Under the pieces are notes generated by a model that saw only the letters and a program-made list of their open reading frames with translations, did not search any database and was not told where the DNA came from. From the NCBI GenBank assembly GCA_943359485.1, contig CALRHR010000001.1, positions 51,141 to 115,140 of the forward strand: DNA of 64,000 nucleotides, read 5' to 3'. The translations under genes were made by a program, and so were the position numbers. Source of the stretch: Candidatus Nomurabacteria bacterium (lineage in GTDB: Bacteria > Patescibacteriota > Minisyncoccia > Phycocordibacterales > UBA9973). Numbering within the stretch: the stretch's first letter is position 1; every line of letters starts with the position of its first letter. Positions 2,019 through 60,110 of the stretch are shown piece by piece.

Positions 2019-2034
2019 GATGTTTTTCTTCCTA

Positions 2035-2062
2035 TCTCTAATTCGCGCGAATAGACGAATAG
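2035..2062. promoter_or_regulatory. palindromic element TCTCTAATTCGCGCGAATAGACGAATAG upstream of ArsR-like gene
   Basis: Near-perfect palindrome CTAATTCGCGCGAATAG. A second copy lies at 2367-2400, directly after the same gene. Confidence 0.5.
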
Positions 2063-2105
2063 ATATAGTGTGTTATGTTATATAAAGTTTTGGTATAATA
2101 AAAGA

Positions 2106-2372
2106 ATGAACGAGAAGGAACTCGAAAAAGTTTTAAAAGCGCTTGCTAATAAGCGCCGGGTTGCGATTTTAAAATTTCTCAAGCATACCAAGCAGGCATC
2201 GGTGGGGGAAATCGCAGACGCTATAAAATTGTCTTTCAAAGCAACATCAAAACATCTAATGATTCTTTCAAATACAGATATAGTTGAAAAAGAGCAGAGT
2301 AGTCTCACGATGCTTTATTTTGTACCCAAGACCAATCATCCAATAGTTTCTAAATTATTATCCATTATCTAA
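2106..2372 (+). CDS. ArsR/SmtB-family winged-helix transcriptional regulator
   Basis: The HTH core RRVAILKFL...ASVGEIADAIKLSFKATSKHLMIL is typical of ArsR. The likely start is the internal ATG at 2106 rather than the ORF-track start at 2070. Confidence 0.7.
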   Translation: MNEKELEKVLKALANKRRVAILKFLKHTKQASVGEIADAIKLSFKATSKHLMILSNTDIVEKEQSSLTMLYFVPKTNHPIVSKLLSII

Positions 2373-2400
2373 TCTCTAATTCGCACGAATAGGCGAATAG
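2367..2400. promoter_or_regulatory. second copy of the ArsR-flanking palindrome (TCTCTAATTCGCACGAATAGGCGAATAG)
   Basis: Near-identical to the element at 2035-2062. Confidence 0.5.
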
Positions 2401-2407
2401 TTTAAAT

Positions 2408-3049
2408 ATGCAGGATTTTACTAAAAAAGAAAAAGCTTTATTAAAGAAATTGGATACTCCAGCGAAGGTGCAGGATTTTTTAAATGGAATTCCTTTTAAT
2501 TTTGAAAAAAGGGGAGAGACATTAAAATCCCCATTAATGGTTTTACGAACAAAAAGCGCGCATTGTTTCGAGGGGGCGCTTTTGGGCGCATATATTTTAT
2601 CTCTTCATGGTTTCACTCCATATGTTTTGCATTTAAAAAGTATCAAAGATGACTACGATCATATCATAACGCCATTTAAGATTGAGGGATTGTGGGGCGC
2701 GCTTTCTAAAACCAATCATGCGGTCTTGCGTTATCGCGAGCCAATCTATAAAAATATTCGTGAGCTCGCGATCTCGTATTTTCATGAATATTTTTTAAAT
2801 GATGGAAAGAAAACTTTGAGACAGTACTCCCAACCTTTAAATTTAAATACTTTAAATAAACCCACCCGACCGAACGGTCGTCCGGGCGGGAATTGGGTAA
2901 CTAGTGAAAAAGATTTGTGGTATATAGATAAAAAATTAGATAAAATAAAACACTATGACATCATACCTAAAGCGCACATAAAAAATCTGCGCAAAGCAGA
3001 CAAAATTGAAATCAAGGCAGGGAAGGTGGTAGAATACAAGAAGCCATAA
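2408..3049 (+). CDS. hypothetical protein, possibly a transglutaminase/papain-like Cys-His fold
   Basis: SAHCFEGALLGAYIL resembles the transglutaminase-core Cys motif, and a downstream DYDHII provides a candidate His. The match is weak. Confidence 0.3.
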   Translation: MQDFTKKEKALLKKLDTPAKVQDFLNGIPFNFEKRGETLKSPLMVLRTKSAHCFEGALLGAYILSLHGFTPYVLHLKSIKDDYDHIITPFKIEGLWGALSKTNHAVLRYREPIYKNIRELAISYFHEYFLNDGKKTLRQYSQPLNLNTLNKPTRPNGRPGGNWVTSEKDLWYIDKKLDKIKHYDIIPKAHIKNLRKADKIEIKAGKVVEYKKP

Positions 3050-3081
3050 ATTCTTGAGGGCTACAAAAATGAGATGTAATC

Positions 3082-3113
3082 CTTACTTCACTAACGGCCG
3101 TCAGTGTGGTAAG
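3082..3113. promoter_or_regulatory. palindromic box CTTACTTCACTAACGGCCGTCAGTGTGGTAAG upstream of PaaX-like gene
   Basis: It has a CGGCCG-centred inverted repeat nested inside a CTTAC...GTAAG outer repeat. A near-identical copy lies at 3698-3733. Confidence 0.5.
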
Positions 3114-3121
3114 ATAATCAC

Positions 3122-3697
3122 ATGAGGGGACAAATACTTTTAAAGGCTCTGGAAGTGCTCACAGATTGCGCATTGACTCAAGTTGATTTTATTGAGGCAG
3201 TGCTTGCGAGTGGTTACGGGGCGGGTTTAGGGAAACTTGATTATGAATTTAGAAAAAGGCGAAGTGTAAGAGAGCGGGCAAATCTCAGAGAAGAGTATAA
3301 AACAGAACGCCGAAGGAGATTACAAAATTTTTTATACCAGATGAAACATGACGGATTGCTGGATGCTACTAAAGATAATAAATTGACCGTTTCTATAAAA
3401 GGAAAACAAAAAATAAAGGAACTAAAAAATAAATTACCTGGGCGTTACTACCTTAAAACAAAGACAACACAGATCACCATCATTAGTTTTGATATACCAG
3501 AGAAATTAAGGAGAAAGCGAAACTGGTTACGGGAAGTGATTAGGAATCTTGGGTTTAAAATGATACATCAGAGTGTTTGGATGGGGAAAAACAAAATCCC
3601 TGCAGAATTCATAGAGGATCTTGAGAACTTAAGAATTTTGGAATATGTTGAGATTCTGGAAGCTACTAAGAGCGGAAGTTTGAAGAAATTGGTATAA
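3122..3697 (+). CDS. short PaaX-family-like regulator (winged helix plus PaaX/Cas2-like middle domain)
   Basis: ITIISFDIPEKLRRKRNWLREVIRNLGFKMIHQSVW matches the PaaX WDGKW...L.QGFG block and the Cas2-like beta-alpha-beta pattern. It is a paralog of the 32676-33221 gene. Confidence 0.5.
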   Translation: MRGQILLKALEVLTDCALTQVDFIEAVLASGYGAGLGKLDYEFRKRRSVRERANLREEYKTERRRRLQNFLYQMKHDGLLDATKDNKLTVSIKGKQKIKELKNKLPGRYYLKTKTTQITIISFDIPEKLRRKRNWLREVIRNLGFKMIHQSVWMGKNKIPAEFIEDLENLRILEYVEILEATKSGSLKKLV

Positions 3698-3733
3698 TCT
3701 TACTCTACTAACGGCCGTCAGTTGGGTAAGATT
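3698..3733. promoter_or_regulatory. downstream copy of PaaX-like flanking palindrome (ATCTTACTCTACTAACGGCCGTCAGTTGGGTAAGAT)
   Basis: Matches the 3082-3113 element. Confidence 0.5.
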
Positions 3734-3966
3734 TGGATAATTGCTAGATTGCTAGATTGCTAGGAGTCTTCTTTTCTTCTTTTTCATGGCAGTATTCTTT
3801 TTGGGTTTTCTGTATTGTTCGTTTTTTTTATTTTCAGTATTTTTAATTATTACGACATTTAAAATGCATCAATATTAGACGATACAGGATGGGGCGGCGA
3901 GAATTGGGGAGATGGTTAATTTTCACAAAAATCTTGCTCTTCTCGGAGCCTTGCTGATGCTTTTGT

Positions 3967-4413
3967 CTATTCCTTTGCCTTGGGTGGTCTCTCTAGCTCT
4001 GCAATAGCTTGATCTAAAAAATCATTTGCTTTTTTTATCTCTTCTGCCGTAATTCTATTTTCCCCTGTCTTTCTATCTTCTCCTGTACGTAATCCTTCTT
4101 CAAATACTTTAAAATTTTCAAAATCAACTAGCAAACTTGCACTTAAATCTATCCTTGATTCTATCGCATGTAAAAAATATCTAACTATCTTCAGAAAAAA
4201 ACTTTTTCTGCATTTATATATAGCAAATTCTGGATTTGTTTTTGGAGTTAATAAGTATTCTGGTATTTCATCAATAAAATCATTACGAAAAATACGAAAT
4301 ATTTCTAAATATCGTTCTTTTGGACTTTCTATATTTTTTGTAGCAAGAAATTTTTGATTTAGCGCTCGTGTTTTAGACGTACCCTCATATGCAGTTGTTT
4401 GTCGAGCTTCCAT
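3967..4413 (-). CDS. hypothetical protein
   Basis: 148 aa ORF lying downstream of nrdB on the same strand. Confidence 0.45.
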   Translation of the reverse strand: MEARQTTAYEGTSKTRALNQKFLATKNIESPKERYLEIFRIFRNDFIDEIPEYLLTPKTNPEFAIYKCRKSFFLKIVRYFLHAIESRIDLSASLLVDFENFKVFEEGLRTGEDRKTGENRITAEEIKKANDFLDQAIAELERPPKAKE

Positions 4414-22104: not shown

Positions 22105-22267
22105 TAAAGTATAAATAATTTTTAGAGCAAAGATTGAACTCTAACGAATCCAACAAAAATAATACGAATCGTAACATCCAAGGGTCGACGATGCAAAGCA
22201 TCGGAGATACTGAGGAGCGAAGCGACGAATGTACTGTTTTTTGTTTTGTTTCGTTCTAATTAACTTT

Positions 22268-23910
<1,643 letters not shown>

Positions 23911-24137
23911 TTGAAAACTATCCCGGTCCTCTTCGGAGGGCTGAGTGTCAGACCCGTTCTGACCGGATTTATTGAGTCGGTATTGTGTCGCTCAATTGAC
24001 GACACAATAGTTTTTGCTCAAACTTAAAATGAGCTAGACTATATGGAAAGACATATAAAATAAAAAAGTTTCAGCCTTCGGGCTGATCCGCCTCTGGCGG
24101 AAAAAAGGAACGAAACAAAACAAAGGACAGTAACAAA

Positions 24138-25931: not shown

Positions 25932-26273
25932 ATGAAGAAAGTCGTAAAAGATACAAACAAAGAAATGAAGCATTATCTGGGGGTACTTAACGAAATGCAT
26001 GGTGAAAACCTAAAGGGAATTAGAGAGGGTTTTATTCCCATAAATAGAAAACTAGATACTATTACAGAGACCTTAGATAAGCATACAAAAAAACTGGGCT
26101 CTCATTCTGAGATGATAGGTTCTTTGATGAAGGATGTTTCTACTTTAAAATCTGATATGACGATAGTTAAAGGAGATCTCTCTACTATAAAAGGTGATTT
26201 AAAGAAAAAAGTTGACTATGATGATTTTCTTTCTCTAGTACGAAGAGTTCAAAAAATAGAGGCGAAGATATAA
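25932..26273 (+). CDS. hypothetical coiled-coil protein ending RVQKIEAKI
   Basis: 113 aa protein that shares its C-terminus and its 3' flank TAAAATATAAnCAAAATAAT with the gene at 27589-27855. Confidence 0.5.
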   Translation: MKKVVKDTNKEMKHYLGVLNEMHGENLKGIREGFIPINRKLDTITETLDKHTKKLGSHSEMIGSLMKDVSTLKSDMTIVKGDLSTIKGDLKKKVDYDDFLSLVRRVQKIEAKI

Positions 26274-27588: not shown

Positions 27589-27855
27589 ATGAAGGTTAAA
27601 AGTAATGATAAAGGATCTAAGATGACAATAGATAAATTGGCGATAATGGTTGCCAAAGGTTTTGCAAATGTGGCTACAAAAGAAGATTTCAAGAGTTTAG
27701 AAGCAAGAATGGCAACTAAAACGGATGTTGAAGGTATAAAAAACCAGCTTGCCGGCATGAATAAAAGAATAGATGATTTTGCAGAAACTAAAGTTTCTAA
27801 AATTATGTATAAAGGACTTGAAAGTCGAGTTCAAAAAATTGAAGCTAAAATATAA
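27589..27855 (+). CDS. hypothetical coiled-coil protein (paralog of 25932-26273)
   Basis: Has an identical C-terminal RVQKIEAKI and the same 3' flank. Confidence 0.5.
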   Translation: MKVKSNDKGSKMTIDKLAIMVAKGFANVATKEDFKSLEARMATKTDVEGIKNQLAGMNKRIDDFAETKVSKIMYKGLESRVQKIEAKI

Positions 27856-32630: not shown

Positions 32631-32662
32631 ACTACAAAAATACACGGCCGTGTTGTTTTATA
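32631..32662. promoter_or_regulatory. palindromic box CTACAAAAATACACGGCCGTGTTGTTTTATAG upstream of second PaaX-like gene
   Basis: Contains the perfect palindrome ACACGGCCGTGT. A copy lies at 33235-33266. Confidence 0.5.
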
Positions 32663-32675
32663 GTATAATAGGAAT

Positions 32676-33221
32676 ATGCGTAATAGGATTGATTATAAAA
32701 GAATTATTTTAACGACGGTTGCAACTGCAGGAATTTTAGCGGTGGCGGTTCTTGCACCGAATGTCCTGCAAGTTCTAAAGCCTTTTTTAAAGCAAAAGAA
32801 AAGATATAACCTTAAATACTATTTAAATCAAAAAGCAAAGAAACTTATAAAAAATGGTTTTCTTAAAATAGGCACTGAAGACGGGAAACAATTTTTATCG
32901 CTCACAGAAAAAGGAGAGTCTAAATTGAAATTTTATAAGGTTATAGAAAAAAAGAAAAATATTAAATGGGATGGCAAATGGAGGGTAGTTATTTTTGATG
33001 TATGGGAAAAAGCCAGATCAAAAAGAGATCTTTTACGCATGGAAATTAAAAATTTTGGATTTATCCAGCTCCAGCAAAGTGTATGGATTTATCCTTATCC
33101 GTGCGCAGAATTCATTGAGCTTTTAAAGGCAGATTTATCTTTTGGTAAAAATATTAGATATATGGTTGTGGAAAAATTAGATCACGATGAGAATTTGAAG
33201 AAAAAGTTTGGTTTTGGGTAA
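32676..33221 (+). CDS. short PaaX-family-like regulator (paralog of 3122-3697)
   Basis: WDGKWRVVIFDVWEKARSKRDLLRMEIKNFGFIQLQQSVW matches the PaaX WDGKW motif and the Cas2-like fold pattern. Confidence 0.5.
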   Translation: MRNRIDYKRIILTTVATAGILAVAVLAPNVLQVLKPFLKQKKRYNLKYYLNQKAKKLIKNGFLKIGTEDGKQFLSLTEKGESKLKFYKVIEKKKNIKWDGKWRVVIFDVWEKARSKRDLLRMEIKNFGFIQLQQSVWIYPYPCAEFIELLKADLSFGKNIRYMVVEKLDHDENLKKKFGFG

Positions 33222-33234
33222 ATTATAGATATGC

Positions 33235-33266
33235 TACAAAATTACACGACCGTGTAGTTTTGTATT
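33235..33266. promoter_or_regulatory. downstream copy of palindromic box (CTACAAAATTACACGACCGTGTAGTTTTGTAT)
   Basis: Matches the 32631-32662 element. Confidence 0.5.
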
Positions 33267-33312
33267 GCGGATGGTTTTGTGATATTGTTTATGTATAGTT
33301 TTTAAATAGAAA

Positions 33313-33978
33313 ATGAATAATCAGGAGCCACAACCAGGATTTTATTATCATTATAAGCATGACCCGAAAGAGGATGTCAGGAATTATGCCTACGAAGTCC
33401 TGAATATTGCGCATCATACAGAAATCGAGGACTTGGATGAAAATGCAATGGTGGTGTATAGACCGCTATATGAATCAGGTGTTTATAAATTGGGCAAGCA
33501 TTGGGATGCCAGACCGATGAAGATGTTTCTGGAGAATATACTGAAAGATGATAAAGAAATAAAGCGTTTTACGAAAATTACTGACCCCAAAATAATTTCT
33601 GAATTAGAAAAAATTAAAAATCAAATGTATGGAAATAACACTACGACTATTACCTATCAGGATTTTGAAAAAGTTGATATACGGGCGGGGGAGATTTTAA
33701 AGGCGGAAGATTTTCCAGAAGCCAGAAAGCCGATGTATAAAATAACAGTGGATTTTGGCGCAGAGATCGGAATAAAGATGTCTTCCGGGCAATTTACGCA
33801 TCACTATACCAAAGAAGAATTAGTGGGGAAAATGATTATTGGCGTGCTGAACTTTCCACCCAAAAAGATCGGTCCATTTTTCTCGGAATTTTTAACCTTA
33901 GGACTTGCCGATGAAGAAGATAAAGTAGTACTTCTCATGCCTACCCAAAAAGTTCCAAAGGGTGCAAAAATGATGTAA
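33313..33978 (+). CDS. CsaA/Trbp111-like tRNA-binding domain protein with an uncharacterised N-terminal domain
   Basis: The C-terminal half (DIRAGEILKAEDFPEARKPMYKITVDFG...EELVGKMIIGVLNFPPKK) follows the tRNA-binding OB-fold pattern. Confidence 0.55.
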   Translation: MNNQEPQPGFYYHYKHDPKEDVRNYAYEVLNIAHHTEIEDLDENAMVVYRPLYESGVYKLGKHWDARPMKMFLENILKDDKEIKRFTKITDPKIISELEKIKNQMYGNNTTTITYQDFEKVDIRAGEILKAEDFPEARKPMYKITVDFGAEIGIKMSSGQFTHHYTKEELVGKMIIGVLNFPPKKIGPFFSEFLTLGLADEEDKVVLLMPTQKVPKGAKMM

Positions 33979-44551: not shown

Positions 44552-47011
44552 ATGGCGAAAAAAATTTTAGAATCAAACCAAGAAAAAGCACGAGACACAG
44601 TTTTACCTGTTGATGTTGTGACTGAAATGAAAGAGTCCTATTTGGCTTATGCCATGTCGGTCATTACTTCGCGTGCCCTACCGGATGTACGAGATGGGTT
44701 AAAACCTGTGCATCGTCGCATACTTTTTGCTATGCATGAAATGGGGCTGACCGCTTCCGCTAGGTTTAGGAAATCTGCGGCAGTAGTCGGAGATGTGCTC
44801 GGAAAATATCACCCACACGGGGATGTGGCAGTTTATGATTCGATGGTGGGCATGGCCCAAGAATTTTCTTATCGTTACCCATTTATTTTAGGACAGGGAA
44901 ACTTTGGATCCATAGATGGGGACAACGCTGCGGCAATGCGTTATACCGAAGCCAAGATGTCCAAAATTTCGAGTGAACTTCTGCGAGATTTAGAAAAAGA
45001 AACAGTAGACTTTCGTCCGAACTATGACCAGACCCGCAAAGAGCCGATAGTTTTTCCTTCGAGTGTGCCAGCGTTATTATTAAATGGTACTCTTGGTATC
45101 GCTGTTGGTATGGCGACTAATATTCCACCTCATAATTTAGGAGAAGTACTAGACGGAGCGTTGGCCTTGATCGAAAACGAAGATGCCACAACCGAAGACT
45201 TGATGCAGTTCATCAAGGGCCCTGATTTTCCAACCGGTGGAATTGCTTATGGGTCTAAAGACATGCTACACGCATATTCATCTGGTCGCGGAGGGGTGGT
45301 TTGTCGAGGTGAGGCAGAAATTACAGAAGATAAAAATGGCAATCCGCAAATCGTTATTACTTCGATTCCTTTCCGGGTAAACAAATCTAACTTGATCATG
45401 GCGATAGCGGAGTTAGTGCAAGAAAAAAAATTGGAAGGTATCAAAGGTCTGCGAGATGAATCCACCAAAGATATCAGAGTCGTTATTGATTTAAAGAACA
45501 ATGCTCATCCGGAAAAAGTTTTAAATTATATTTATAAAAATACTCAACTTGAATCCAACTTCAATTTTAATATTGTTGCCTTGGTGGATGGTGTTCCACA
45601 GACCCTTTCACTCAAGTCAATTTTGACCGAATTTATTTCTCATCGAAAGGAAGTGGTAAAGAGGCGGAGTATTTATGATCTACGCCGTGCCGAGGAGCGT
45701 GAGCATATTCTGCTTGGTTTAAAAAAGGCGTTGGATAAAATAGATCGAGTCATCACAATCATTCGTGGTTCAAAAGATTCACACATTGCTAAAGTTAATT
45801 TAATAAAAGAATTCAAATTTTCCGACTTGCAGGCGATCGCGATTTTGGAAATGAAACTTTCCAAGCTCGCCGGACTGGAGAGAAAAGCCGTGGAAGACGA
45901 ACTAAAAGAAAAACAGAAATTTATTGCCGAGATGAAAGAAATTTTGGCCAGTACAAAAAGAGTTTTGAAAATAATTTCCGATGAATTAAAAGAAATTCGT
46001 GAGAAGTATGCTGATGAACGCCGCACCAAGATAGTCAAAGGTGGGGTTAAAGAAATTTCTGATGAAGACCTAGTTCCAGAAAAAGAAACCATGCTTGTAC
46101 TCACCGCTGGTGGATATGTAAAGTGTACAGATCCTTCTGAATATCATGCCCAAAAGCGTGGTGGGGTTGGCGTAATTGATTTAGAAACCAAAGAAGAGGA
46201 TTTTGTTACTAAACTTGTCTCAGGTTCGACGCACGATGATATGCTTTTTTTCACAAATCTGGGTAAAGTTTATCAAATTAAAATGTATGATATCCCAGAG
46301 GGTAGGAGAGCTACAAAAGGTAAGTCCATTATGAATTTCTTAGCTCTTTCTGCCGAAGAAAAAGTGAGCTCAATATTGGCAATGCCGAAAGATAAAGGTC
46401 TAACCACCACCTCTCTAATGCTTGTAACAAAAAATGGTATAGCTAAAAAAATGTCTTCAGGTGGTTTCAAAGATGTGCGTCGTAGTGGTATTATAGCCAT
46501 TCGTTTAGATAAAGGAGATGAATTAATTTCTGCGCTTTTAACAGAAAAAGGTGATGAAGTGATTTTAGCAACTACAGAAGGACAATCTATTAGATTTAAA
46601 GAGTCCGATGTGCGTGAGATGGGTCGCACTGCAGGTGGCGTCACAGGTATAAAAATGAAAAAAGATGATGAAGTTATCAGTGTTGATGTTATTAAAAAAG
46701 ATCAAAAAGACGGAACCTTCCTAGTAATGAGCGCCAACGGTTTTGGTAAAAAAACTAATTTAAAAGAATATAAAGTTCAGCGTCGTAGTGGTTCAGGCAT
46801 AAAAACAGCCAAAGTTACAGCTAAAACCGGTAAACTCATCGTCGCTAAGGTTTTAACCGGCAATGAATTAGAATTGATAGCCATGTCAAAAAAGGGGCAG
46901 GTTATTCGCACACCCCTAAAAGACATTTCATCTTCAGGCCGTCAAACTCAAGGAGTAACCATCATGCGTCTCCGTCCTGGAGATGGCATAGCGTCACTTA
47001 CCTGTATTTAA
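44552..47011 (+). CDS. gyrA: DNA gyrase subunit A
   Basis: Contains the [11 protein letters not shown] signature and active-site Tyr region, followed by C-terminal beta-pinwheel repeats. Confidence 0.95.
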
Positions 47012-47013
47012 CC

Positions 47014-47032
47014 TGTCAAAGGCGGGCTTTGA
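47014..47032. repeat. REP hairpin GTCAAAGGCGGGCTTTGAC
   Basis: Perfect 7-bp stem; identical copies lie at 47658 and 47738. Confidence 0.7.
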
Positions 47033-47642
47033 CATCAAAATTCAGTGTTTGCTCTATAAAGTTTTTAGTGTCTCCAAAAGTTTCCAGTAAGAATTCTTTA
47101 CTAACTATTGGCAAGTTTCGGTCTGATGCATAATCATTATAACTACCCCACTGATATTCTTTTGGATGTTTCACTAATCCATCTTTTACTGGATTCATGT
47201 GAATATAAGATGATGTCCACATCAGCTGAGGATCGCCTTTAATAAGTACTGCCTTAAATTTGTCTTGAAAAACATGCCCAACTTTTTTATATTTTTTATT
47301 AATGTATCTAGAATAACTAGTACAAAGTTTTAACATTAATTTTGAAATTGGCATGTCTACAATTTGTTCAATTAGAAAATGGAAGTGGTTTGGCATCAGA
47401 CAAAAAGCATACAAATTAAAAGCCCCTTTTTCCATTTTAGTTATCCTGATTCTAGAGTAGGGTAGGGCAGTTAATTTTTCTTTGTTTAATTCTTCTTCAG
47501 TAAATCCCAAAGACAGTCCCAGTCTAAAGAGGAAAGCTCTATAATCCTGCTCATCGAAAAATATCTTCTCCTTATTATTGCCACGATTATAGATGTGATA
47601 AATACCACCAGGAGCAAATTCTTTAAAGTCTCTATTATTCAT
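47016..47642 (-). mobile_element. IS200/IS605-like Y1 (HUH) transposase, REP-associated tyrosine transposase type
   Basis: Contains YHIYNRGN, the HUH motif MPNHFHFLI and a catalytic Tyr region. REP hairpins flank it on both sides. Confidence 0.8.
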
Positions 47643-47654
47643 ACTTGTAAGTAT

Positions 47655-47760
47655 ATGTCAAAGGCGGGCTTTGACAAGGGGAAGTTATCAACAGGGCATA
47701 TAAAATGTGTCAAAGTGTGCCAAGGGCGATGTGTCAAAGGCGGGCTTTGACACACAGTTT
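47655..47760. repeat. cluster of REP hairpins (two perfect GTCAAAGGCGGGCTTTGAC copies plus one degenerate copy)
   Basis: Perfect copies at 47658 and 47738; degenerate copy GTCAAAGTGTGCCAAGGGCGATGTGTC at about 47708. Confidence 0.7.
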
Positions 47761-50517: not shown

Positions 50518-50820
50518 ATGATGTGTAATCAAGAAGGTTTAATTGAAATGGTGTGTAGGTTGGGTGATCTTTTCAGTATTGTTGTTCCGGTATTAGTGGG
50601 CTTGGGAGTTGTTTACTTTGTCTGGGGTGTCGTTCAATATGTTATTGCTGATGATGTAGAGGCAAAGTCGAAGGGCAAAGACAGGATAATCTTTGGCATT
50701 ATCGGTTTGGCTGTGATTGTTAGTTTGTGGGGGTTAGTGTTCATTCTTACGGATACTTTTTTTGGTGTAGATGCAGGCATGGAAGGTGCCCCTGATTTTC
50801 AAGGTCTACTTCCTGAATAA
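50518..50820 (+). CDS. small two-TM protein paralog
   Basis: Has the core YFVWGVVQYVIADDVEAKSKGKDRIIFGIIGLAVIVSLWGLV. Confidence 0.55.
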   Translation: MMCNQEGLIEMVCRLGDLFSIVVPVLVGLGVVYFVWGVVQYVIADDVEAKSKGKDRIIFGIIGLAVIVSLWGLVFILTDTFFGVDAGMEGAPDFQGLLPE

Positions 50821-50825
50821 AAAAT

Positions 50826-51563
50826 ATGAAAAAATACGCACAAAAAATAGTAAAATTTATTCCAATACTTTTTATTTTAACCTTTGTTCCATTTTTAGTT
50901 TTTGCCCAACCCATACCCCCTTCTGCGCCTTCCGGTTTGGCTGCTGTAATAAATAAAATCAGTGCTTTGCTTAGCTCACTTCTCCCCGTACTTATTTCCC
51001 TAGGAGTACTCTATTTTATTTGGGGAGTTATTATTTATTTTATTGCTGACGATGCAGAGGCAAAGTCGAAGGGCAAAGACAGGATAATCTACGGCATTAT
51101 CGGCCTTGCTGTCATTGTCAGTGTTTGGGGACTGGTTGCCATCTTAAATCAAACTCTTGGTTTGAGTGGGAACTCTGGTTTATCTGGCGTGAGTGCTCCT
51201 TCTAGTATTTCAAATTTGGCACCCTCTTCCAATGTATTACCTTCATGTTCATATATGATAAGTAATAAACCAAAGCTGGCGAATTATCTGGAGTACTTTA
51301 CTTGTATAATTGCTCAATCAGTCATCCCACTTATCTTTGCCATAGCTGTCGTGACCTTTATCTGGGGTGCGGTAAAGTTCTTTATCATCAATGCGGAAGA
51401 GGAAGCCAAAAGAGATCAGGGCAAGCAGTTCATGCTCTGGGGTATTATTGCCCTCGCGGTGATGATCAGTGTTTGGGGTTTGGTCAAAATTCTGGGAGAG
51501 ACCGTGAATATAGATACAAACTATCTGCCTTCAGTTCAGCCGTACAGTTCATCCCGGCCGTAG
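50826..51563 (+). CDS. small two-TM protein paralog with a tandem-duplicated helix-loop-helix module
   Basis: Signal peptide followed by two copies of the module (ADDAEAKSKGKDRIIYG... and NAEEEAKRDQGKQFMLWG...). Confidence 0.55.
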   Translation: MKKYAQKIVKFIPILFILTFVPFLVFAQPIPPSAPSGLAAVINKISALLSSLLPVLISLGVLYFIWGVIIYFIADDAEAKSKGKDRIIYGIIGLAVIVSVWGLVAILNQTLGLSGNSGLSGVSAPSSISNLAPSSNVLPSCSYMISNKPKLANYLEYFTCIIAQSVIPLIFAIAVVTFIWGAVKFFIINAEEEAKRDQGKQFMLWGIIALAVMISVWGLVKILGETVNIDTNYLPSVQPYSSSRP

Positions 51564-51620
51564 CCCTTGCTTTTATTATTAGTATGTTTGTGTTAGAATT
51601 AACAGGTCGTTTATTAATTA

Positions 51621-51700
51621 AGTCAGGTACTAGGTGTTAGGCGCTAGGCATTAGCATAAAATCAAGCTAAAGCTTAAAGTCTAAATTCCTAAAGCCTAAA
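51621..51700. repeat. CTAGGC/CCTAAA hairpin repeat element
   Basis: The arms CTAGGTGTTAGGCGCTAGGCATTAGC and GCTAAAGCTTAAAGTCTAAATTCCTAAAGCCTAAA are imperfectly complementary. Confidence 0.6.
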
Positions 51701-51703
51701 AAA

Positions 51704-52090
51704 ATGAAAAATAAATTAATGGTTTTGTCGGGTTTTGTTATGGGTTTGGTTCCGGTCGTGGCGTTAGCGCAGAATACTGGTGGTACTCCTACTGTGTGTA
51801 CTGCGGGTCCTGTGACAACCTTTCAGGGTGCCTTGTGTAAAATTGGGGAGATTATGAATGCAATCATTCCGATTTTGATAACACTGGGTGTACTGTACTT
51901 TGTCTGGGGAGTTATTTCGTATGTTATTGCTGATGATGAAGAGGCAAAGTCAAAGGGACGAGACAGGATAATCTACGGTATTATCGGCTTGGCTGTTATC
52001 ATTTCTGTTTGGGGATTGGTGAAGATTTTGTCAAATACTTTTGGGCTTACAAATGTACAGCAAATTACTTTTCCGACTGTTTCTTACTAA
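51704..52090 (+). CDS. small two-TM protein paralog
   Basis: Signal peptide and a Cys pair, then the core YFVWGVISYVIADDEEAKSKGRDRIIYGIIGLAVIISVWGLV. Confidence 0.55.
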   Translation: MKNKLMVLSGFVMGLVPVVALAQNTGGTPTVCTAGPVTTFQGALCKIGEIMNAIIPILITLGVLYFVWGVISYVIADDEEAKSKGRDRIIYGIIGLAVIISVWGLVKILSNTFGLTNVQQITFPTVSY

Positions 52091-52624: not shown

Positions 52625-52855
52625 ATGAAAAATATCATTCAATTTTCAATCGAAAAAGGGCAGGATGGGTATTACATTGCTACAGCAAATGATTTTGCTA
52701 TTATTACCCAAGCGAAAAATTTAGAAGATTTGTTTGTAAATATTAAAGAAGCCACCGAGCTTCACTTTGAAGAAATTTTAGAAGAAGAAACATCTCTGAG
52801 CCGCAATCCTTCAATTTTTATAAACTACGAAATGCCTATCGCGCTCTATGCCTAA
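52625..52855 (+). CDS. hicB: HicB-family antitoxin
   Basis: UPF0150-like over IEKGQDGYYIATANDF...IKEATELHFEE, and it overlaps hicA. Confidence 0.6.
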   Translation: MKNIIQFSIEKGQDGYYIATANDFAIITQAKNLEDLFVNIKEATELHFEEILEEETSLSRNPSIFINYEMPIALYA

Positions 52856-53090
52856 ATTAAAGCGACTTTCTGGCAAAGAAGTCATAACTTTTTGTGAACA
52901 ACACAATTTTAGTATCAGTAGACAGAAAGGAAGCCATATTAATTTGGTACGAATTGTTTCAGAGAAAAAACAAGTGGTGACCGTGCCAAATCATAAAGAA
53001 ATAGACAGAGGAACATTGCATAATATTTTCAAGAAACTGTCTTCATTCATTCCTGAAGAAGATTTAAGAAAATTTTTCTTTACTGACTAG
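52848..53090 (+). CDS. hicA: HicA-family toxin (mRNA interferase)
   Basis: LKRLSGKEVITFCEQHNFSISRQKGSHINL matches the HicA KGSH motif. Confidence 0.65.
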   Translation: MPKLKRLSGKEVITFCEQHNFSISRQKGSHINLVRIVSEKKQVVTVPNHKEIDRGTLHNIFKKLSSFIPEEDLRKFFFTD

Positions 53091-53102
53091 GTAAAATCAA
53101 AA

Positions 53103-53160
53103 AGGCGGTCGTTCATCGCTGAACGGGTCCGCCTTTTGTTTTGCGCGTGGGGCTCGCACG
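53103..53160. terminator. bidirectional terminator hairpins
   Basis: AAAGGCGGTCGTTCATCGCTGAACGGGTCCGCCTTTTGTTTTG, plus a second hairpin CGCGTGGGGCTCGCACGCG. Confidence 0.6.
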
Positions 53161-53248
53161 CGCGATGTTTTCATGAGCCCTCCTTTCTCCGAAGTTGATC
53201 TGCTTCGGGCAGAGACCTTCTTTGCGCTGGTCAGGCGCTCCGAGAGAA

Positions 53249-54253
53249 TTACTCCCGGATGTATACACCTGTGGCTGGGGTTGCCCCCTCGCCACAGAAC
53301 TTCCAGATCCCCGCCATCCCGATGGACGGCGGGGGGGTGGTGCCGAAGGTCTCTGTATGAGATCCTCCGTCCGGGTCAAACACCTTCATGGAGCCCCGAT
53401 CGGGACCCCACTGGCTGTTGATCCGTAGGTTCCGTTCGTAACAGCCATCTGTTCCGAACGGGTAGAGGGTGGGTGTCGGCCCTACCTTCGCGGGCGCCGG
53501 GGCTGTCGAGGCCACCGGCGTGGATGTCCGGCTACCTGCCGGTGAGGGGGGTGCGGGAGGTAACAATCCCCCAAAAAATCCACCCACTGTCTCCCGGATC
53601 TCGGTCCCGACCCGTTGGGCTACTTTGTCGCCGACTACAGCCTTTTTTGCTGTGTCGATAGCCACTGGGCCGATGCCGCGCCCCTCGGATGCCGCCTGAT
53701 CTGCTTCCTCCCACTTCGTCGTGGGGGCGGGAATCGCGGGGACCGTCATTGGCGTCGCCGACTTCGGCCGAGCCATCTCGGCCGATCGTGGCATTTCCCT
53801 TGCCACGAAAAGGGAAATCAACACTATTCCGAAGATGGTGAGCGCTGGCTTCACTCGGCCGTGTGCCGTCATTGCGGCGATCACGACCGAACAAAAAAAC
53901 AGCGCTACCCAAATTAAGATATCCGTACTGGCTGTTGGGTATAGCCATGGGCGTGGTCCCGTGGTGAGAAAGTAGCTGAAGGCGAAGTTATTGCTAACTC
54001 CGACAACAGTAGTTCCCACCATCATGACGAATGTAAGCGTAGAGAACCCGACGATGAATTTCTTCATTCCATCGGAAATTCCGCCGCCGTGTGCCGCCGC
54101 GGGTCGCGAGAGGCCGCCCCAGCCTTGGTGCTGGGCCAGCTTGTAAAGGCCGTACAGCACTCCGCCGACGATAGCGACGGTCCAGGGGTTCCAGCCGAAT
54201 GAGCTCGACACCCAATACACTCCCAGGGCCGCGATTGCAAATTTCCAAAACAT
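53249..54253 (-). CDS. polytopic membrane protein with Pro/Thr-rich extracellular C-terminal region (GC-rich island gene C)
   Basis: Several predicted TM helices and a high-GC codon bias. The leader repeat lies immediately upstream. Confidence 0.55.
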   Translation of the reverse strand: MFWKFAIAALGVYWVSSSFGWNPWTVAIVGGVLYGLYKLAQHQGWGGLSRPAAAHGGGISDGMKKFIVGFSTLTFVMMVGTTVVGVSNNFAFSYFLTTGPRPWLYPTASTDILIWVALFFCSVVIAAMTAHGRVKPALTIFGIVLISLFVAREMPRSAEMARPKSATPMTVPAIPAPTTKWEEADQAASEGRGIGPVAIDTAKKAVVGDKVAQRVGTEIRETVGGFFGGLLPPAPPSPAGSRTSTPVASTAPAPAKVGPTPTLYPFGTDGCYERNLRINSQWGPDRGSMKVFDPDGGSHTETFGTTPPPSIGMAGIWKFCGEGATPATGVYIRE

Positions 54254-54254
54254 T

Positions 54255-54600
54255 TCATTTCTTCCTTAACTCCGTCCCCTTGACTGGGCAACATGGAGTT
54301 GGAGCAGACTGATCAGAGTACTACAACCGCTTGCGCGTTTGTCTTACTTTGAATAGTCTGCCCGCTAGGAAGCCGGATTTTTTCTCTCCTCTCCTTACCC
54401 CCTCCGCTTTCAGCACCTCCCCCTAAATAGGGGGAGGCCGGGTAGGGGTACAAAGGGGTGAGGGTTCAGCTACATGGCGGGCAAACCATTCATTTTGCTC
54501 GAAATTCTACTTACTTCTTATTTAATTTTCGAAGGTCAGCTTTACCTATGTATTGTATCACACTTATGACAAAAAGTCAAGCCCTTTGGGCTGAATTTGT
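54255..54600 (-). promoter_or_regulatory. ~310-bp AT-rich leader, copy 1: near-consensus sigma-70 promoter plus structured 5' UTR
   Basis: On the minus strand the promoter reads TTGACT-N17-TACAAT (about 54560-54590). The leader has a conserved P1 hairpin UCGAAAAUU...AAUUUCGA and a closing helix UGCCCG/CGGGCA around a variable GC-rich core. It is duplicated at 56190-56500. Confidence 0.6.
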
Positions 54601-54783
54601 CCTTATTTTGTAAGGTTAAAATGATAAAAGGGCCGCCTCAGTGAAGAGACAGCCCTTTGTTTTGCGCTGGGCCTGTGCGCGATTTGGGCCCTGGGTTGAC
54701 GAGTCCCCGTTGCGTCACTCTGGTTTGTTCCCTCCAGACGGGAGACCTCTATTTTGTAAGCGCTGGTCAGGTGCTTTGTCTTT

Positions 54784-55281
54784 TTAGGGGCAGTACCGGC
54801 TTGCCCCCTCTTCGAGGGGGTTGAACGGCCGTTTCTTCCCGTCCTCCCCGACGATCTCGTCGGGGCAGCCGAATTTCTTGTGTTTGGGGGTCCCTACCCC
54901 CAGAATTTTGTCGACGGCCTGGTCGAGCGCTTGCCCGACAGAGACCGCCGACTTGCCGTCGCCGAGTCCAAGACTCCCGAGGACCTTGTTGATCCCCTCG
55001 AGGGCCGCGTTCCCGGCGGTCTTTCCGATCTCAAGCGCGCGCCGATTGCGCAGCGCGCGGGCCTTGGCTAGAATCGTCGGAGTGCTGTCCTCCGGATGCG
55101 CCTCGAGCCAGGCCAGCGTCTTGCTGGCCCCGTCATAGAGCGCCTTCGCTCCCTCGATTGTTGTAGCGGCTGGAGCCTTCTCCAGAGCCGCCACTTTCTG
55201 CGCCATTTTTTCTTGTCGGCTGGCGCCACAACCGACCGCCGTGAGTGCCACGGCGAGCACGAACGTCAAGAGGAAATTCAT
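54784..55281 (-). CDS. putative lipoprotein (GC-rich island gene B)
   Basis: The signal sequence MNFLLTFVLAVALTAVGC has a lipobox-like Cys, and a strong GGAGG SD lies upstream. The region is high-GC. Confidence 0.5.
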   Translation of the reverse strand: MNFLLTFVLAVALTAVGCGASRQEKMAQKVAALEKAPAATTIEGAKALYDGASKTLAWLEAHPEDSTPTILAKARALRNRRALEIGKTAGNAALEGINKVLGSLGLGDGKSAVSVGQALDQAVDKILGVGTPKHKKFGCPDEIVGEDGKKRPFNPLEEGASRYCP

Positions 55282-56153
55282 TTCTTCCCTCCCCCTCCAA
55301 ACATTCCCTTGACTATCCACTCCAGGGGCTGGGTGACTACCTCACCCAGGGAGTGTTTGGCGGCCAACTCCCCAATGCCGCCAATCTTCCATTTCCTAAT
55401 ACCCCCGAGGACCTCGTCCCAACGGGAGCAGACGATGGCTCCGACGAGCGCTATCATCTGCCACCCGAGAACTCCCCACCCCATAGCCTTCTCCCCGAAG
55501 AGAAACGAGTTAATGGTTGCCCAAAAACCGAATTCCCCCAGGGGATCCTCGAGCGGAGTCGTTGCCACAGCCCAGAACTGGGCTTTGGCGATTTCGATGG
55601 GGTTTAGGGTTGCTGGCGCCGCGGTAGGGTCCACCCACCACAAAAACACCACCCCTAACACCATCCACACCGTCGTGCGAAGTACCCAGTTGTTGTCGCC
55701 GAGCCGGATCAGGACACTCCGCCCGATCTCCGCAGCCCCACGGCCGTGAGTCTCGATTCCCGCGAAGATGGCGAAGACCGCGAGCGTGGTCACGAGGGCA
55801 ACTAGCGTAAAGGCTGGGTAGCCGAACCAAAAACCGAAGACGATCCAGTAGAGTACTATGAACAGCGCCCCCCAGAATCCCACGGTCTTCGGCTTGATCA
55901 CTACCTCGCCTTCGTCGCAAGCGCCATCGCCTACGACTTCGGCCCTAATGATGTGTCGTCCCGGTTTGAGGTCTTTGAGCTCGAAGCTCGCGACCCCGCC
56001 TTCCGTCTTTACGGCGCGCTTGCGCTTGCCGTCGACCGAGAAACGAACCTGGACTTCTTTCTCGCCACCTTTTTTCCCGGCGGTGGCCGGCCGGTCTGAC
56101 ACGACGGCTTCCGCCACCGTGTCTTTCTCTACTAAACTCAAAGTCAAAATCAT
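55278..56153 (-). CDS. membrane protein with N-terminal soluble beta-rich domain (GC-rich island gene A)
   Basis: Starts MILTLSLVE after an AGGAGA SD, has several TM helices and shows high-GC codon bias. Confidence 0.55.
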   Translation of the reverse strand: MILTLSLVEKDTVAEAVVSDRPATAGKKGGEKEVQVRFSVDGKRKRAVKTEGGVASFELKDLKPGRHIIRAEVVGDGACDEGEVVIKPKTVGFWGALFIVLYWIVFGFWFGYPAFTLVALVTTLAVFAIFAGIETHGRGAAEIGRSVLIRLGDNNWVLRTTVWMVLGVVFLWWVDPTAAPATLNPIEIAKAQFWAVATTPLEDPLGEFGFWATINSFLFGEKAMGWGVLGWQMIALVGAIVCSRWDEVLGGIRKWKIGGIGELAAKHSLGEVVTQPLEWIVKGMFGGGGKK

Positions 56154-56189
56154 TATCTTTCTCCTAATCAAATTTTTTCTCGAGCACAC

Positions 56190-60035: not shown

Positions 60036-60110
60036 GTGCGTCCAGAAGGGATCGAACCTTCGACCTTATCCTTAAGAGGGATCTGCTCTACCAGCTGAGC
60101 TATGGACGCA
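60036..60110 (-). tRNA. tRNA-Lys (anticodon CUU)
   Basis: Acceptor stem TGCGTCC/GGACGCA and anticodon loop CUCUUAA. CCA is not encoded. Confidence 0.75.

Follow-up and report, generated by a model that had tools for sequence, protein, structure and literature searches.

Paired boxes around three small regulator genes of a Candidatus Nomurabacteria genome: putative cognate operators of mini-PaaX and ArsR-like proteins

Three regulator genes between matched boxes

Three genes for small regulators, one ArsR-like and two PaaX-like paralogs (hereafter mini-PaaX paralogs 1 and 2), each lie between matched boxes in the window, that is, the whole 64 kb stretch of DNA analysed here. The ArsR unit and the gene behind it comprise the following features:

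2034–2062, forward strand: ArsR upstream box, ATCTCTAATTCGCGCGAATAGACGAATAG, ~30 nt upstream of the −10 element; also upstream in 5/5 orthologous loci
2091–2099, forward strand: extended −10 of the ArsR gene, TGGTATAAT, 6 nt before the ATG at 2106; read from the sequence
2106–2372, forward strand: ArsR/SmtB-type winged-helix regulator, 88 aa; Pfam HTH_5, E 2e-8
2372–2400, forward strand: ArsR downstream box; its first base is the final base of the stop codon, and its end is 7 nt from the next ATG
2408–3049, forward strand: gene after the ArsR unit, 213 aa; transglutaminase/vasohibin-like matches, only weak

The two mini-PaaX units are laid out in the same manner:

3082–3113, forward strand: putative paralog-1 upstream operator, a 32-bp dyad, CTTACTTCACTAACGG-CCGTCAGTGTGGTAAG; orthologous box in all paralog-1-type loci with both flanks
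3107–3115, forward strand: paralog-1 extended −10, TGGTAAGAT, within the upstream operator (right arm) and 6 nt from the ATG at 3122
3122–3697, forward strand: mini-PaaX paralog 1, 191 aa; N-terminal winged helix and C-terminal Cas2-like PaaX_M domain
3699–3730, forward strand: putative downstream copy of the paralog-1 operator, CTTACTCTACTAACGG-CCGTCAGTTGGGTAAG; starts 1 nt past the stop codon
32632–32663, forward strand: putative paralog-2 upstream operator, CTACAAAAATACACGG-CCGTGTTGTTTTATAG; conserved in L002–L007
32676–33221, forward strand: mini-PaaX paralog 2, 181 aa; PadR/MarR-type winged helix and PaaX_M domain
33234–33265, forward strand: putative downstream copy of the paralog-2 operator, CTACAAAATTACACGA-CCGTGTAGTTTTGTAT; 13 nt past the stop codon, in 6/6 orthologs
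33313–33978, forward strand: gene after paralog 2, a fusion of DUF1653 and a tRNA-binding domain (Pfam)

The box pairs were thus found for all three genes where the original prediction had placed them, or 1–5 nt away. The two ArsR boxes are 93% identical and those of paralog 1, which extend over 3082–3115 and 3699–3732 around the 32-bp dyad cores, 88% identical. The motif ACGGCCGT, which forms the centre of the PaaX-type boxes, occurs five times in the window against 0.32 occurrences expected, which rules out chance as the origin of the box pairs. As predicted, the boxes are paralog-specific and tied to their genes, in the manner of cognate operators, which they putatively are: full boxes, half-boxes and cores are all confined to the gene flanks within the window, and palindromes at many unrelated loci, the outcome named as fatal to the prediction, were not encountered there. 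Each locus contains exactly two copies, with no others in the 64 kb window or within ±2.5 kb of the homologous loci, the exclusivity scan having covered 64 kb of the source genome and ~5 kb around each related gene. Further targets may thus exist beyond this DNA, and the two flanking sites may not be the principal task of these regulators.

Wherever both flanks of a homologous locus are available, the box-gene-box layout is found again, namely in ~54 relatives of paralog 1 (all paralog-1-type loci with both flanks), in 6/6 paralog-2 orthologs (L002–L007), in 3/3 distant PaaX_M family members and in 5/5 ArsR orthologous loci. Two loci that seemed to lack the pair, L058 and L083, turned out to have miscalled start codons, and both possess it. 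This retention in every homologous locus examined indicates that the downstream copies are under selection, and the arrangement as a whole probably serves for self-repression, with an additional site at the 3′ end.

Several further candidates for boxes were discarded. Two occurrences of ACGGCCGT, at 54825 and 55740, are located inside an unrelated island of 54%–61% GC, and a 46-nt repeat at 26245 and 27827 corresponds to the C-terminal coding sequence common to two paralogous small proteins. The prediction that both PaaX-type upstream boxes begin with CTACAAAAAT did not survive: in the case of paralog 1, this sequence is at 3061–3070, 12 nt upstream of the palindrome, and is not conserved in paralog-1 orthologs, so that the apparent common prefix is a chance match and CTACAAAAAT belongs to the paralog-2 palindrome only. 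It is mildly enriched in the window, with 24 matches at up to one mismatch against 13.8 expected, a count reached in 1 of 100 shuffles.

The assignment of the 88-aa protein, which is of minimal size, to ArsR-type regulators holds, since, besides the HTH_5 match, it scores above the cut-off of NCBIfam NF033788 (57.6 bits; cut-off 55); its score against PF01022 is 34.2 (cut-off 22), and the search yielded 863 homologs. It also matches the model of the autorepressor SdpR at 46 bits. The upstream box combines a 12-bp palindrome, ATTCGCGCGAAT, which is typical of the ArsR/SmtB family, with a directly repeated GCGAATAG-type half-site; this third half-site, as well as the second box copy right behind the stop codon in all six genomes, sets the unit apart from both ArsR/SmtB and SdpR systems. 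The sequence TG(a/c)TATAAT followed, after 6–7 nt, by ATG is also present in the ArsR orthologs L088–L091, and the position of the −10 element 6 nt before the ATG implies a leaderless mRNA.

Mini-PaaX proteins and their family

Both PaaX-like proteins match the Pfam family PaaX_M (PF20803) above the gathering cut-off of 24, with E values of 4e-12 and 2e-20 (46.5 and 73.2 bits), which bears out the PaaX/Cas2-like fold attributed to them; the possibility that they might lack any winged-helix or PaaX similarity does not apply, as each combines a winged helix with a PaaX_M domain. Foldseek ranks Cas2 proteins first, with PaaX (8a39) and Rv0674 (3kfw) next; AF2 models, on which the paralog-1 result is partly based, have a moderate pLDDT of 78, and that of paralog 1 is of poor quality at the N-terminus. 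Alignment to Escherichia coli PaaX with hhalign (probability 90%, E 1.6e-6) spans PaaX residues 56–147, including the WDGKW motif.

PaaX (TIGR02277; structures 8a39, 3l09 and 3kfw), a repressor in E. coli and Pseudomonas that responds to phenylacetyl-CoA, displays the same succession of an N-terminal winged helix and a Cas2-like central, dimerisation domain. However, PaaX is 316 aa long, whereas the mini-PaaX proteins, of 181–191 aa, end 10–20 residues past the Cas2-like domain, and neither has a Pfam match to PaaX_C. Similarly, the match to TIGR02277 covers only profile positions 43–136 of 279 and reaches 35.8 bits against a cut-off of 264.55. Lacking the PaaX_C effector domain, mini-PaaX proteins have no known ligand input. 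A further difference is that there are no paa genes near the mini-PaaX genes, the neighbours being guaA, nrdAB, gyrB and thrS or secA and murE. From PadR/MarR-type repressors, mini-PaaX would differ in dimerising through a ferredoxin-fold, Cas2-like domain rather than through helical extensions. The family is large, with 5,358 clusters (50% identity) at E ≤ 1e-3 and 419 at E ≤ 1e-30, and nearly all of the best 150 clusters consist of proteins of ~155–260 aa, mostly 170–215 aa, i.e. without the C-terminal third of PaaX.

An identity as CRISPR Cas2, a stand-alone protein of ~90 aa encoded beside cas1 and a CRISPR array, was considered and rejected: the Cas2 models TIGR01573 (23.2 and 17.6 bits; cut-off 24.5) and PF09827 (21.3; cut-off 23.8) remain below their cut-offs, and the domain forms one protein with a winged helix. 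Of the neighbours examined, none is annotated as cas1, and the defence and phage libraries returned nothing but the sub-threshold Cas2 matches. The acidic residue at the end of β1 of the Cas2-like domain is invariant in paralog 1 (D124) and conserved in at least 90% of paralog-2 sequences (D108); an acidic residue is also present at this position of E. coli PaaX, a plain repressor. A PDB sequence search with the family profile gave no match, an HMM search of all ORFs in the window revealed no third PaaX_M paralog, and our literature search found no papers that join PaaX with Cas2.

Operator architecture, promoters and specificity

PaaX-type boxes are dyads of 32–34 bp, with outer arms of 5–6 bp placed 22 bp apart around the central ACGGCCGT core, and, in the upstream copies, overlap the −10 element. 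E. coli PaaX binds TGATTC-N27-GAATCA and autorepresses the Px promoter by RNA polymerase exclusion (PMC9493321). The mini-PaaX boxes resemble this operator in their far-spaced short inverted repeats (~6-N22-6 compared to N27) and in their overlap with the −10, from which repression by occlusion of the regulator's own promoter, as in PaaX, is predicted; they differ in the presence of the central core and in occurring as a pair that brackets the regulator gene. Compared to PadR/MarR-type operators, the half-sites are much further apart. A simple model of one dimer with two recognition helices leaves both the 28-bp centre-to-centre distance of the arms and the conserved core unexplained.

The upstream copies contain an extended −10 (TGnTAnnnT) 6–9 nt from the ATG, which implies leaderless mRNA and autorepression; the paralog-2 upstream operator abuts the −10 TATAAT at 32664–32669, 6 nt before the ATG at 32676. 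Among paralog-1 orthologs, the two copies are strongly asymmetric in this respect: 32/33 upstream copies have the final T of the −10 (TAnnnT), compared to 7/33 downstream copies (p 1e-10), and the TG extension is found in 27/33 versus 6/33 (p 4e-7). The paralog-1 downstream copy in the window still has TAAGAT and, judging by this motif, may have promoter activity. No literature on Patescibacteria promoters or leaderless transcripts was found, and none of the papers listed by looser term matching was relevant.

The arms of paralog-1 boxes follow the pattern (C/T)(T/C/A)TAC…GTA(A/G/T)(A/G). In 34/46 loci, one and the same sequence makes up all four outer half-arms of the genome, and between genomes there are at least six arm variants. 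These variants are partitioned perfectly by column 69 of the alignment, which belongs to the helix before the wing, with N accompanying CTTAC, K accompanying TCTAC and V, I or L accompanying TTTAC; the mutual information of this column is 1.45 bits versus 1.0 for the next-best column. The tree further contains an independent switch from I to R together with TCCAC arms, nested within the TTTAC clade, and a single contig carries two paralog-1-like genes, one with TCTAC arms and K69 (read from L040, which has the same match) and the other with TTTAC arms and I (L061). This covariation comprises few independent events and was read on a neighbour-joining tree. The pairing of K or R with C:G and of hydrophobic residues with T:A is compatible with direct base readout, and N69, in the recognition helix of paralog 1, is likely to be a specificity residue.

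An altogether different reading, that the palindromes are RNA hairpins serving as terminators or 3′-end stabilisers and that the copies resemble each other through gene conversion rather than protein recognition, appears very improbable. The PaaX-type boxes do fold at −9 to −15.6 kcal/mol (z-scores −2.2 to −5.4) and are located at gene boundaries, and canonical terminators with a hairpin and a T-run are unenriched here (13 versus 9.4 ± 3.1 expected), so that unconventional terminators could be in use. However, the boxes are not followed by a T-run, none of them was picked up by the terminator scan, and Rfam has no family match at the boxes. The greater part of the upstream copy precedes the inferred transcription start, and hairpins provide no explanation for four matching half-arms per genome or for the tracking of residue 69. 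The boxes are better described as DNA dyads than as RNA hairpins because the symmetry runs through the central 4 nt, which would form the loop (position 2 is symmetric in 46/46 loci), because G.T and A.C mismatches, balanced in upstream copies (58 versus 57) and modestly shifted towards A.C in downstream copies (31 versus 50), carry no clear strand signal, and because the ArsR boxes have the same layout although neither folds into a significant hairpin (z −0.6 and −1.8).

Taking the observed boxes, their conservation and co-variation with the protein, the promoter asymmetry, the protein folds and the synteny described below together, we infer binding, dimerisation and repression as follows. 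Mini-PaaX proteins would be two-domain repressors without the ligand-binding PaaX_C domain, which, by homology with PaaX and Cas2, would dimerise through the Cas2-like domain, such that the two recognition helices of the dimer read the outer arms of the 32–34 bp dyad. The upstream operator holds the extended −10 and the start point of the leaderless transcript, so that a bound dimer would block RNA polymerase, resulting in negative autoregulation as described for PaaX at Px. Overall, we regard it as probable that each box pair represents the cognate operators of the regulator encoded between them, with autorepression at the upstream site and an auxiliary copy at the 3′ end.

Possible roles of the downstream copy

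The downstream copy begins 0–60 nt past the stop codon and, in the paralog-1 lineage, would be a binding site stripped of promoter determinants. The most economical reading, that it is merely the operator of the next gene's promoter, with neither looping nor a boundary function, is possible but seems doubtful to us as a complete account. In its favour, −10-like elements (in the window, GATATT with TG at 33281–33286 and TATAGT at 33294–33299) and a co-directional gene come within ~20–50 nt after the downstream box in paralog-2 loci; in the ArsR unit, the box ends 7 nt before the next ATG in the window and a co-directional gene is 15–37 nt from the box in 4/5 orthologs (~190 nt in L092). The genes at 33313–33978 and 2408–3049 are hence candidate targets of the paralog-2 and ArsR downstream boxes, respectively. 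Nevertheless, the gene that follows changes between genomes in both cases (DUF1653 in three genomes and others in four for paralog 2), whereas the place of the box next to the regulator's stop codon does not change, 0–16 nt past it in 5/5 ArsR orthologs irrespective of the following gene, and its distance from the next promoter is variable (e.g. ~45 nt in L092). For paralog 1, whose next gene in the window (3967–4413) is convergent, control of the next gene is not a general reason for the box, because 31 of 47 downstream neighbours in the lineage are convergent and the −10 T and the TG are gone from the downstream copies, yet the box is retained in every locus. Regulation of the next gene, one of the explanations originally put forward, accordingly fits paralog 2 and ArsR but fails as a general explanation for paralog 1. 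In the former two units, the downstream copy would lie in or just upstream of the next promoter and probably couples the following gene to the regulator.

The original prediction also entertained a movable cassette. In its strongest form, with the palindromes as terminal repeats and the winged-helix/Cas2-like protein as a nuclease or recombinase, this reading of the box-gene-box unit as a mobile or selfish element is highly unlikely. Homology between loci does begin and end exactly at the boxes, the acidic β1 residue of the Cas2-like domain is kept (as it is, however, in the repressor PaaX), and a true palindrome-flanked transposase unit of the IS200-like type is present in the same window at 47011–47752. 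For the ArsR unit, the neighbours differ in all six genomes, with no extra box copies seen, and orthologs of the 213-aa gene in L009 and L010 are accompanied by neither ArsR nor box, so that the notion of a movable unit retains some footing there. The PaaX-like genes, by contrast, are single-copy per orthogroup and reside in neighbourhoods conserved across deep protein divergence, with gyrB upstream in 22 paralog-1 loci, thrS downstream in 26 and nrdB in the closest relatives, and with secA…murE in 6/6 paralog-2 loci, even though the proteins have diverged to 40%–60% identity. Being syntenic (gyrB/guaA…thrS/nrdB and secA…murE), they are not mobile, and extra or solo box copies are absent from the window and from the loci within ±2.5 kb. 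In REP-associated IS200-like units (RAYT/REPtron), such as the one in the window, a gene is likewise flanked by a palindrome that its product should recognise, but the protein is an HUH Y1 transposase, of another class than mini-PaaX. REP sequences normally exist as numerous scattered copies; mini-PaaX boxes, by contrast, are found solely as a pair at the gene flanks, and the genes between them are syntenic.

It is scarcely credible that the downstream copy is a functionless relic of an operator-promoter duplication, for instance, of a tandem gene duplication after which the second gene disappeared. Both copies do point the same way, as direct repeats, and share, within a genome, idiosyncratic, non-symmetric positions, but a relic would neither persist and co-vary with the upstream copy across proteins diverged to 40% identity nor recur in three unrelated regulator lineages.

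Under the preferred reading, that of cognate operators, the paralog-1 downstream copy is most likely an auxiliary operator acting through cooperative looping with the promoter operator, by holding a protein roadblock where the unit ends, or both. Auxiliary operators that act by looping include lac O1/O2/O3, λ OL-OR around cI-rexAB and the flanking sites of phage 186 CI; such a site, which accompanies a repressor gene or promoter at a distance of a few hundred bp and is devoid of a promoter of its own, could raise the local concentration of the repressor. The mini-PaaX units similarly have a second putative cognate site a few hundred bp from the regulator's promoter, which could act in the same way. 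They differ in that this site is always in the first non-coding DNA past the stop codon and in the absence of helical phasing: across operator spacings of 613–705 bp, no periodicity was found (Rayleigh maximum R 0.28, p 0.14). Looping of the two operators, which is compatible with the data, therefore gains no positive support from the spacing, and no higher-order oligomerisation is known in the mini-PaaX family.

More speculatively, and in our estimation improbably, the box-gene-box arrangement might be a general self-contained cassette of Paceibacteria, in which the regulator marks both ends of its own unit and the 3′ site provides a protein-dependent boundary. Such a site may serve as a terminator, insulator and gate for the DNA that follows, in genomes where canonical terminators are lacking and mRNAs are leaderless. 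In a more radical version, the conserved acidic pocket of the Cas2-like domain may confer nucleic-acid processing at the boxes, and the protein would then be more than a repressor.

Almost nothing of gene regulation in the candidate phyla radiation has been characterised, and the organisms are difficult to grow. For the mini-PaaX family, the present analysis yields predictions of the operators, of the promoter type (extended −10 and leaderless mRNA) and of a candidate specificity residue, all three of which are testable in vitro or in E. coli, without culture of the host. The co-varying protein-DNA pairs constitute a natural series of orthogonal repressor/operator sets. In three unrelated regulator lineages, a second cognate site has been retained right behind the stop codon, which suggests that small regulators are wired or insulated here in a manner typical of the lineage and, if looping or roadblocking were confirmed, would show how transcription units are delimited in compact, terminator-poor genomes.

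Box pairs around three regulator genes and their conservation

Sequence reading and a repeat finder confirmed that each of the three regulator genes of the window, two PaaX-like paralogs and an ArsR-like gene, lies between two copies of a palindromic putative operator (box).

Regulator genes and their boxes
2034-2062 and 2372-2400: boxes of the ArsR-like gene (2106-2372), copies 93% identical, seen by sequence reading and the repeat finder (family D14)
3082-3115 and 3699-3732: boxes of PaaX-like paralog 1 (3122-3697), copies 88% identical (repeat-finder family D11)
32632-32663 and 33234-33265: boxes of PaaX-like paralog 2 (32676-33221)

The window contains five occurrences of the core ACGGCCGT, where 0.32 would be expected; three of them are in PaaX-type boxes, and the remaining box carries ACGACCGT instead. 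Scans for full boxes (up to 7–8 mismatches), half-boxes and the ArsR core revealed no further boxes in the 64 kb. The proposal that both upstream PaaX-type boxes begin with CTACAAAAAT had to be dropped: this sequence is part of the paralog-2 palindrome, but upstream of paralog 1 it lies beyond the palindrome (3061-3070) and is not conserved in orthologs, and its enrichment in the window is mild (24 matches with at most one mismatch versus 13.8 expected; 1 of 100 shuffles attains 24).

The box-gene-box layout is universal among the retrieved loci, about 5 kb of each having been scanned. All six paralog-2 orthologs from other genomes (L002-L007) are located downstream of secA and are followed by murE in five cases, the corresponding position being beyond the fetched part of L007; each possesses an upstream box and a matching downstream box in the same orientation, with a core that varies among genomes (ACACGGCCGTGT, ATGCGGTCGTCT, GAGACGATCGTCTC) and agrees within each. 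For paralog 1, 80 metagenomic loci were retrieved and 56 distinct loci with both flanks compared: the best match between the upstream and downstream regions has a median of 21 identical bases out of 24, versus 16 of 24 in a control region, and each locus carries exactly two copies. Two apparent exceptions, L058 and L083, were rejected, as their start codons had been wrongly placed and the pair is present in both. Distant PaaX_M members (L093-L095; 51–56% identity to paralog 2) have their own 34–42 bp palindromes on both sides (3/3), and the five ArsR orthologs (L088-L092) all display a TCTCTAATTCGCGCGAATAGGCGAATAG-type box upstream and 0–16 nt past the stop codon.

The original prediction included the possibility that each regulator with its boxes constitutes a movable cassette. 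The PaaX-like genes are not mobile: paralog 2 stays in its secA…murE context; paralog 1 precedes a convergent nrdB-nrdA pair in the closest relatives, in which NrdB is about 90% identical and the regulator only 62–70%, and resides between gyrB (22 loci) and convergent thrS (26 loci) in most other genomes. Homology between loci starts and stops at the boxes, and no solo or extra boxes were seen in the window or the related loci. The ArsR unit, which has different neighbours in 6/6 genomes, may relocate. Its next gene in the window, encoding 213 aa (2408-3049), has neither ArsR nor a box beside it in L009 and L010; therefore, the unit is not a fixed partner of that gene, the orthologs of which (L009 350-940; L010 413-1021) directly follow an ORF resembling a membrane protein.

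Several other features of these loci were recorded. Just past the downstream box of paralog 1, TGCTAGAT is repeated three times in tandem (3742-3765) within a 233-nt gap; this gap and the ensuing convergent ORF (3967-4413; no Pfam match) are missing from the closest relatives, where nrdB ends 39–56 nt after the paralog-1 gene. In L095 (GCA_042570145.1 JBHPHJ010000006.1, 2501-5137), the PaaX_M gene and the adjoining PCRF/RF-1 gene occur twice, inverted, on a 10-kb contig, which could reflect misassembly or a genuine inverted duplication.

Elsewhere in the window, an IS200-like Y1 transposase gene (47016-47642, minus strand; PF01797, E 5e-12) directly after gyrA is flanked by three TGTCAAAGGCGGGCTTTGACA palindromes (47011-47034, 47653-47676, 47729-47752), and the whole (47011-47752) has the make-up of a REP-associated-transposase-like unit. 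A high-GC island (53100-56250; 54–61% GC versus about 37% for the genome) contains ACGGCCGT at 54825 and 55740, both rejected as boxes since the island is unrelated. It comprises two high-GC blocks, each followed by a near-identical low-GC segment (54302-54583 and 56182-56500; 81–96% identity), has minus-strand ORFs without Pfam matches (53249-54253, 54784-55320, 55278-56189), and is bordered by HicA (52848-53090) and ParE (56860-57144) toxin genes; it could represent foreign DNA, a duplicated insertion site or an assembly chimera. At 1,646 bases, the 16S rRNA gene (22266-23911) exceeds the 1,533-position model by about 110 bases, an insertion; no match to 23S or 5S rRNA was reported for the window. 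Two paralogous, coiled-coil-looking small proteins (25932-26273 and 27589-27855) are nearly identical in C-terminus (…RVQKIEAKI) and 3' flank, which explains a 46-nt repeat at 26245 and 27827. Three to four diverged copies of a 67–209 nt repeat at 50552-52042 (D1 at 50552, 50950 and 51834; D2 at 50672, 51070, 51418 and 51954) point to repeated units arranged as a tandem family. Finally, tRNA-Lys (60036-60109, minus strand) contributes its 5' part to a 71-nt segment that is tandemly repeated at 75% identity (60062-60203), which suggests a decayed tRNA copy.

A two-domain family related to PaaX

Profile searches bore out the PaaX/Cas2-like assignment of the two paralogs, which match the Pfam ‘PaaX central Cas2-like domain’ (PF20803) with 46.5 and 73.2 bits (cut-off 24) and narrowly miss the Cas2 models, as well as the ArsR-like assignment of the third regulator, an 88-aa ArsR/SmtB protein scoring above the NF033788 cut-off. 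The paralogs are homologous to one another (hhalign E 1.4e-13), and residues 56-147 of E. coli PaaX, a stretch running from the recognition helix through wing and linker to the middle of the central domain, align with paralog 2 (E 1.6e-6), including the WDGKW motif. In AlphaFold models of moderate confidence (pLDDT 78), the N-terminal region of both proteins is helical with a beta-hairpin as wing, and a beta-alpha-beta-beta-alpha-beta domain follows it; a three-helix winged helix is clear in the paralog-2 model, and the N-terminal residues of paralog 1 are poorly predicted. The C-terminal domain matches first Cas2 structures and then PaaX (8a39) and Rv0674 (3kfw), with Foldseek probabilities of 0.8–1.0. 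Both proteins lack PaaX_C, their chains ending soon after the Cas2-like domain, and TIGR02277 is matched with 35.8 bits against a cut-off of 264; accordingly, we refer to these two-domain proteins as ‘mini-PaaX’. They share two of the three domains of PaaX and depart from it in effector domain, equivalog score and genomic context. The family encompasses 5,358 representatives (50% identity) at E≤1e-3 and 419 at E≤1e-30; nearly all of the best 150 are ~155–260 aa long, mostly 170–215, and three shorter ones look partial.

Wide-dyad boxes and their putative readout

Paralog-1-type boxes are 32–34 bp dyads with arms (C/T)(T/C/A)TAC…GTA(A/G/T)(A/G) separated by 22 bp and a near-invariant centre, ACGG|CCGT. 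They resemble the operator of E. coli PaaX, TGATTC-N27-GAATCA, in consisting of short inverted repeats set far apart (PMC9493321). The window paralogs share the core and differ in the arms (CTTAC… in paralog 1, CTACAAAA… in paralog 2). Within a genome, all four outer half-arms agree exactly in 34/46 loci; among genomes, there are at least six arm variants. On a single contig carrying two paralog-1-like genes (L041 and L061), the first has TCTAC arms and a ACGATCGT core (read from L040, which has the same match) and the second (L061) TTTAC arms and a CCGGCCGT core.

Although the palindromes could fold as RNA hairpins (-9 to -15.6 kcal/mol), this reading is less favoured than a double-stranded dyad bound by a dimer. 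The dyads remain symmetric right at the middle, which would be unpairable in a hairpin loop (position 2 from the centre complementary in 46/46 and 45/45 boxes), and altered centres are other palindromes (CGATCG, TATATA, CATATG). Counts of G.T versus A.C mismatches (58 versus 57 in upstream copies; 31 versus 50 in downstream copies, a lean to A.C) show no clear wobble signal specific to one strand. The boxes are not followed by a T-run, a terminator scan placed no site at any of them (terminator-like sites in general are at chance level, 13 versus 9.4 ± 3.1), and no Rfam family matched any box. The ArsR box, with the same layout, combines an inverted repeat with a directly repeated half-site and forms no significant hairpin (z -0.6, -1.8).

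Protein and arm sequence covary. When 34 paralog-1-type proteins are aligned, a single column, N69 of the window paralog 1 (…RRLQNFLYQMKHDGL…, in the helix before the wing), partitions perfectly with arm type: N with CTTAC, K with TCTAC and V/I/L with TTTAC. Its mutual information, computed over phylogenetically related sequences, is the maximum possible, 1.45 bits (next-best column, 1.0). In a neighbour-joining tree of all 46 paralog-1-type proteins, TATAC loci have L or I and the TCGAC type Q at this column, and L029 (TCCAC, R) is nested within the TTTAC (V/I) clade, an independent arm/residue switch. Direct major-groove readout predicts such pairing of a basic residue with C:G and of a hydrophobic one with T:A or A:T; because independent events are few, the covariation is supportive rather than conclusive.

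Promoters and the role of the downstream copy

An extended -10 element, TGnTAnnnT, is formed by the right arm of the upstream box in 33 paralog-1-type loci of standard geometry, with the final T in 32/33 and TG in 27/33 (7/33 and 6/33 in downstream copies; Fisher p 1e-10 and 4e-7, values that overstate independence, as the loci are interrelated). The hexamer ends 6–9 nt before the ATG, a putative signature of leaderless mRNA.

Promoter elements of the window regulators
3107-3115: extended -10 of paralog 1, TGGTAAGAT; ATG at 3122
32664-32669: -10 of paralog 2, TATAAT, abutting the box, 6 nt before the ATG
2091-2099: extended -10 of the ArsR-like gene, TGGTATAAT, 6 nt before the ATG; box further upstream

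A protein occupying the upstream PaaX-type box would thus mask both the -10 and the transcription start, resulting in autorepression by occlusion, analogous to that exerted by PaaX at Px (PMC9493321).

The downstream copy is, judging from its conservation, clearly under selection. Regulation of the next gene, one of the explanations originally envisaged, is plausible for paralog 2 and ArsR, for which a co-directional gene always comes next and -10-like elements are located within the box or a short distance beyond it; yet the next gene changes among genomes and the promoter distance varies, whereas the box is fixed at the regulator stop codon. For paralog 1, the downstream neighbours are convergent in 31/47 cases and the downstream copy mostly lacks the promoter bases, so that control of the next gene cannot be its general reason. 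The downstream copy might instead be an auxiliary operator looping to the promoter operator, for which the 3' intergenic spacer would be the nearest non-coding DNA in such compact genomes, or a protein roadblock that would halt read-through from the regulator gene or keep convergent transcription from entering it. The data do not separate the two options; operator spacing (613–705 bp) showed no helical periodicity (p 0.14), which is neutral on loops of this size.

Looping repressors with auxiliary or flanking operators include those of lac, lambda and phage 186, and these operators resemble the pair around the regulator's own gene. The mode of working proposed for mini-PaaX would likewise parallel that of PaaX- and PadR-type autorepressors. 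Our literature search retrieved no paper linking PaaX with Cas2-like domains and nothing on promoters or leaderless transcripts of Patescibacteria; a looser search brought up nothing of relevance among the 12 papers listed. The class of molecule and the logic of autorepression are familiar, whereas no description appears to exist so far of the two-domain family, of the wide-dyad putative operators that co-evolve with it or of the 3' copy, which is strictly conserved and shared with an unrelated ArsR lineage.
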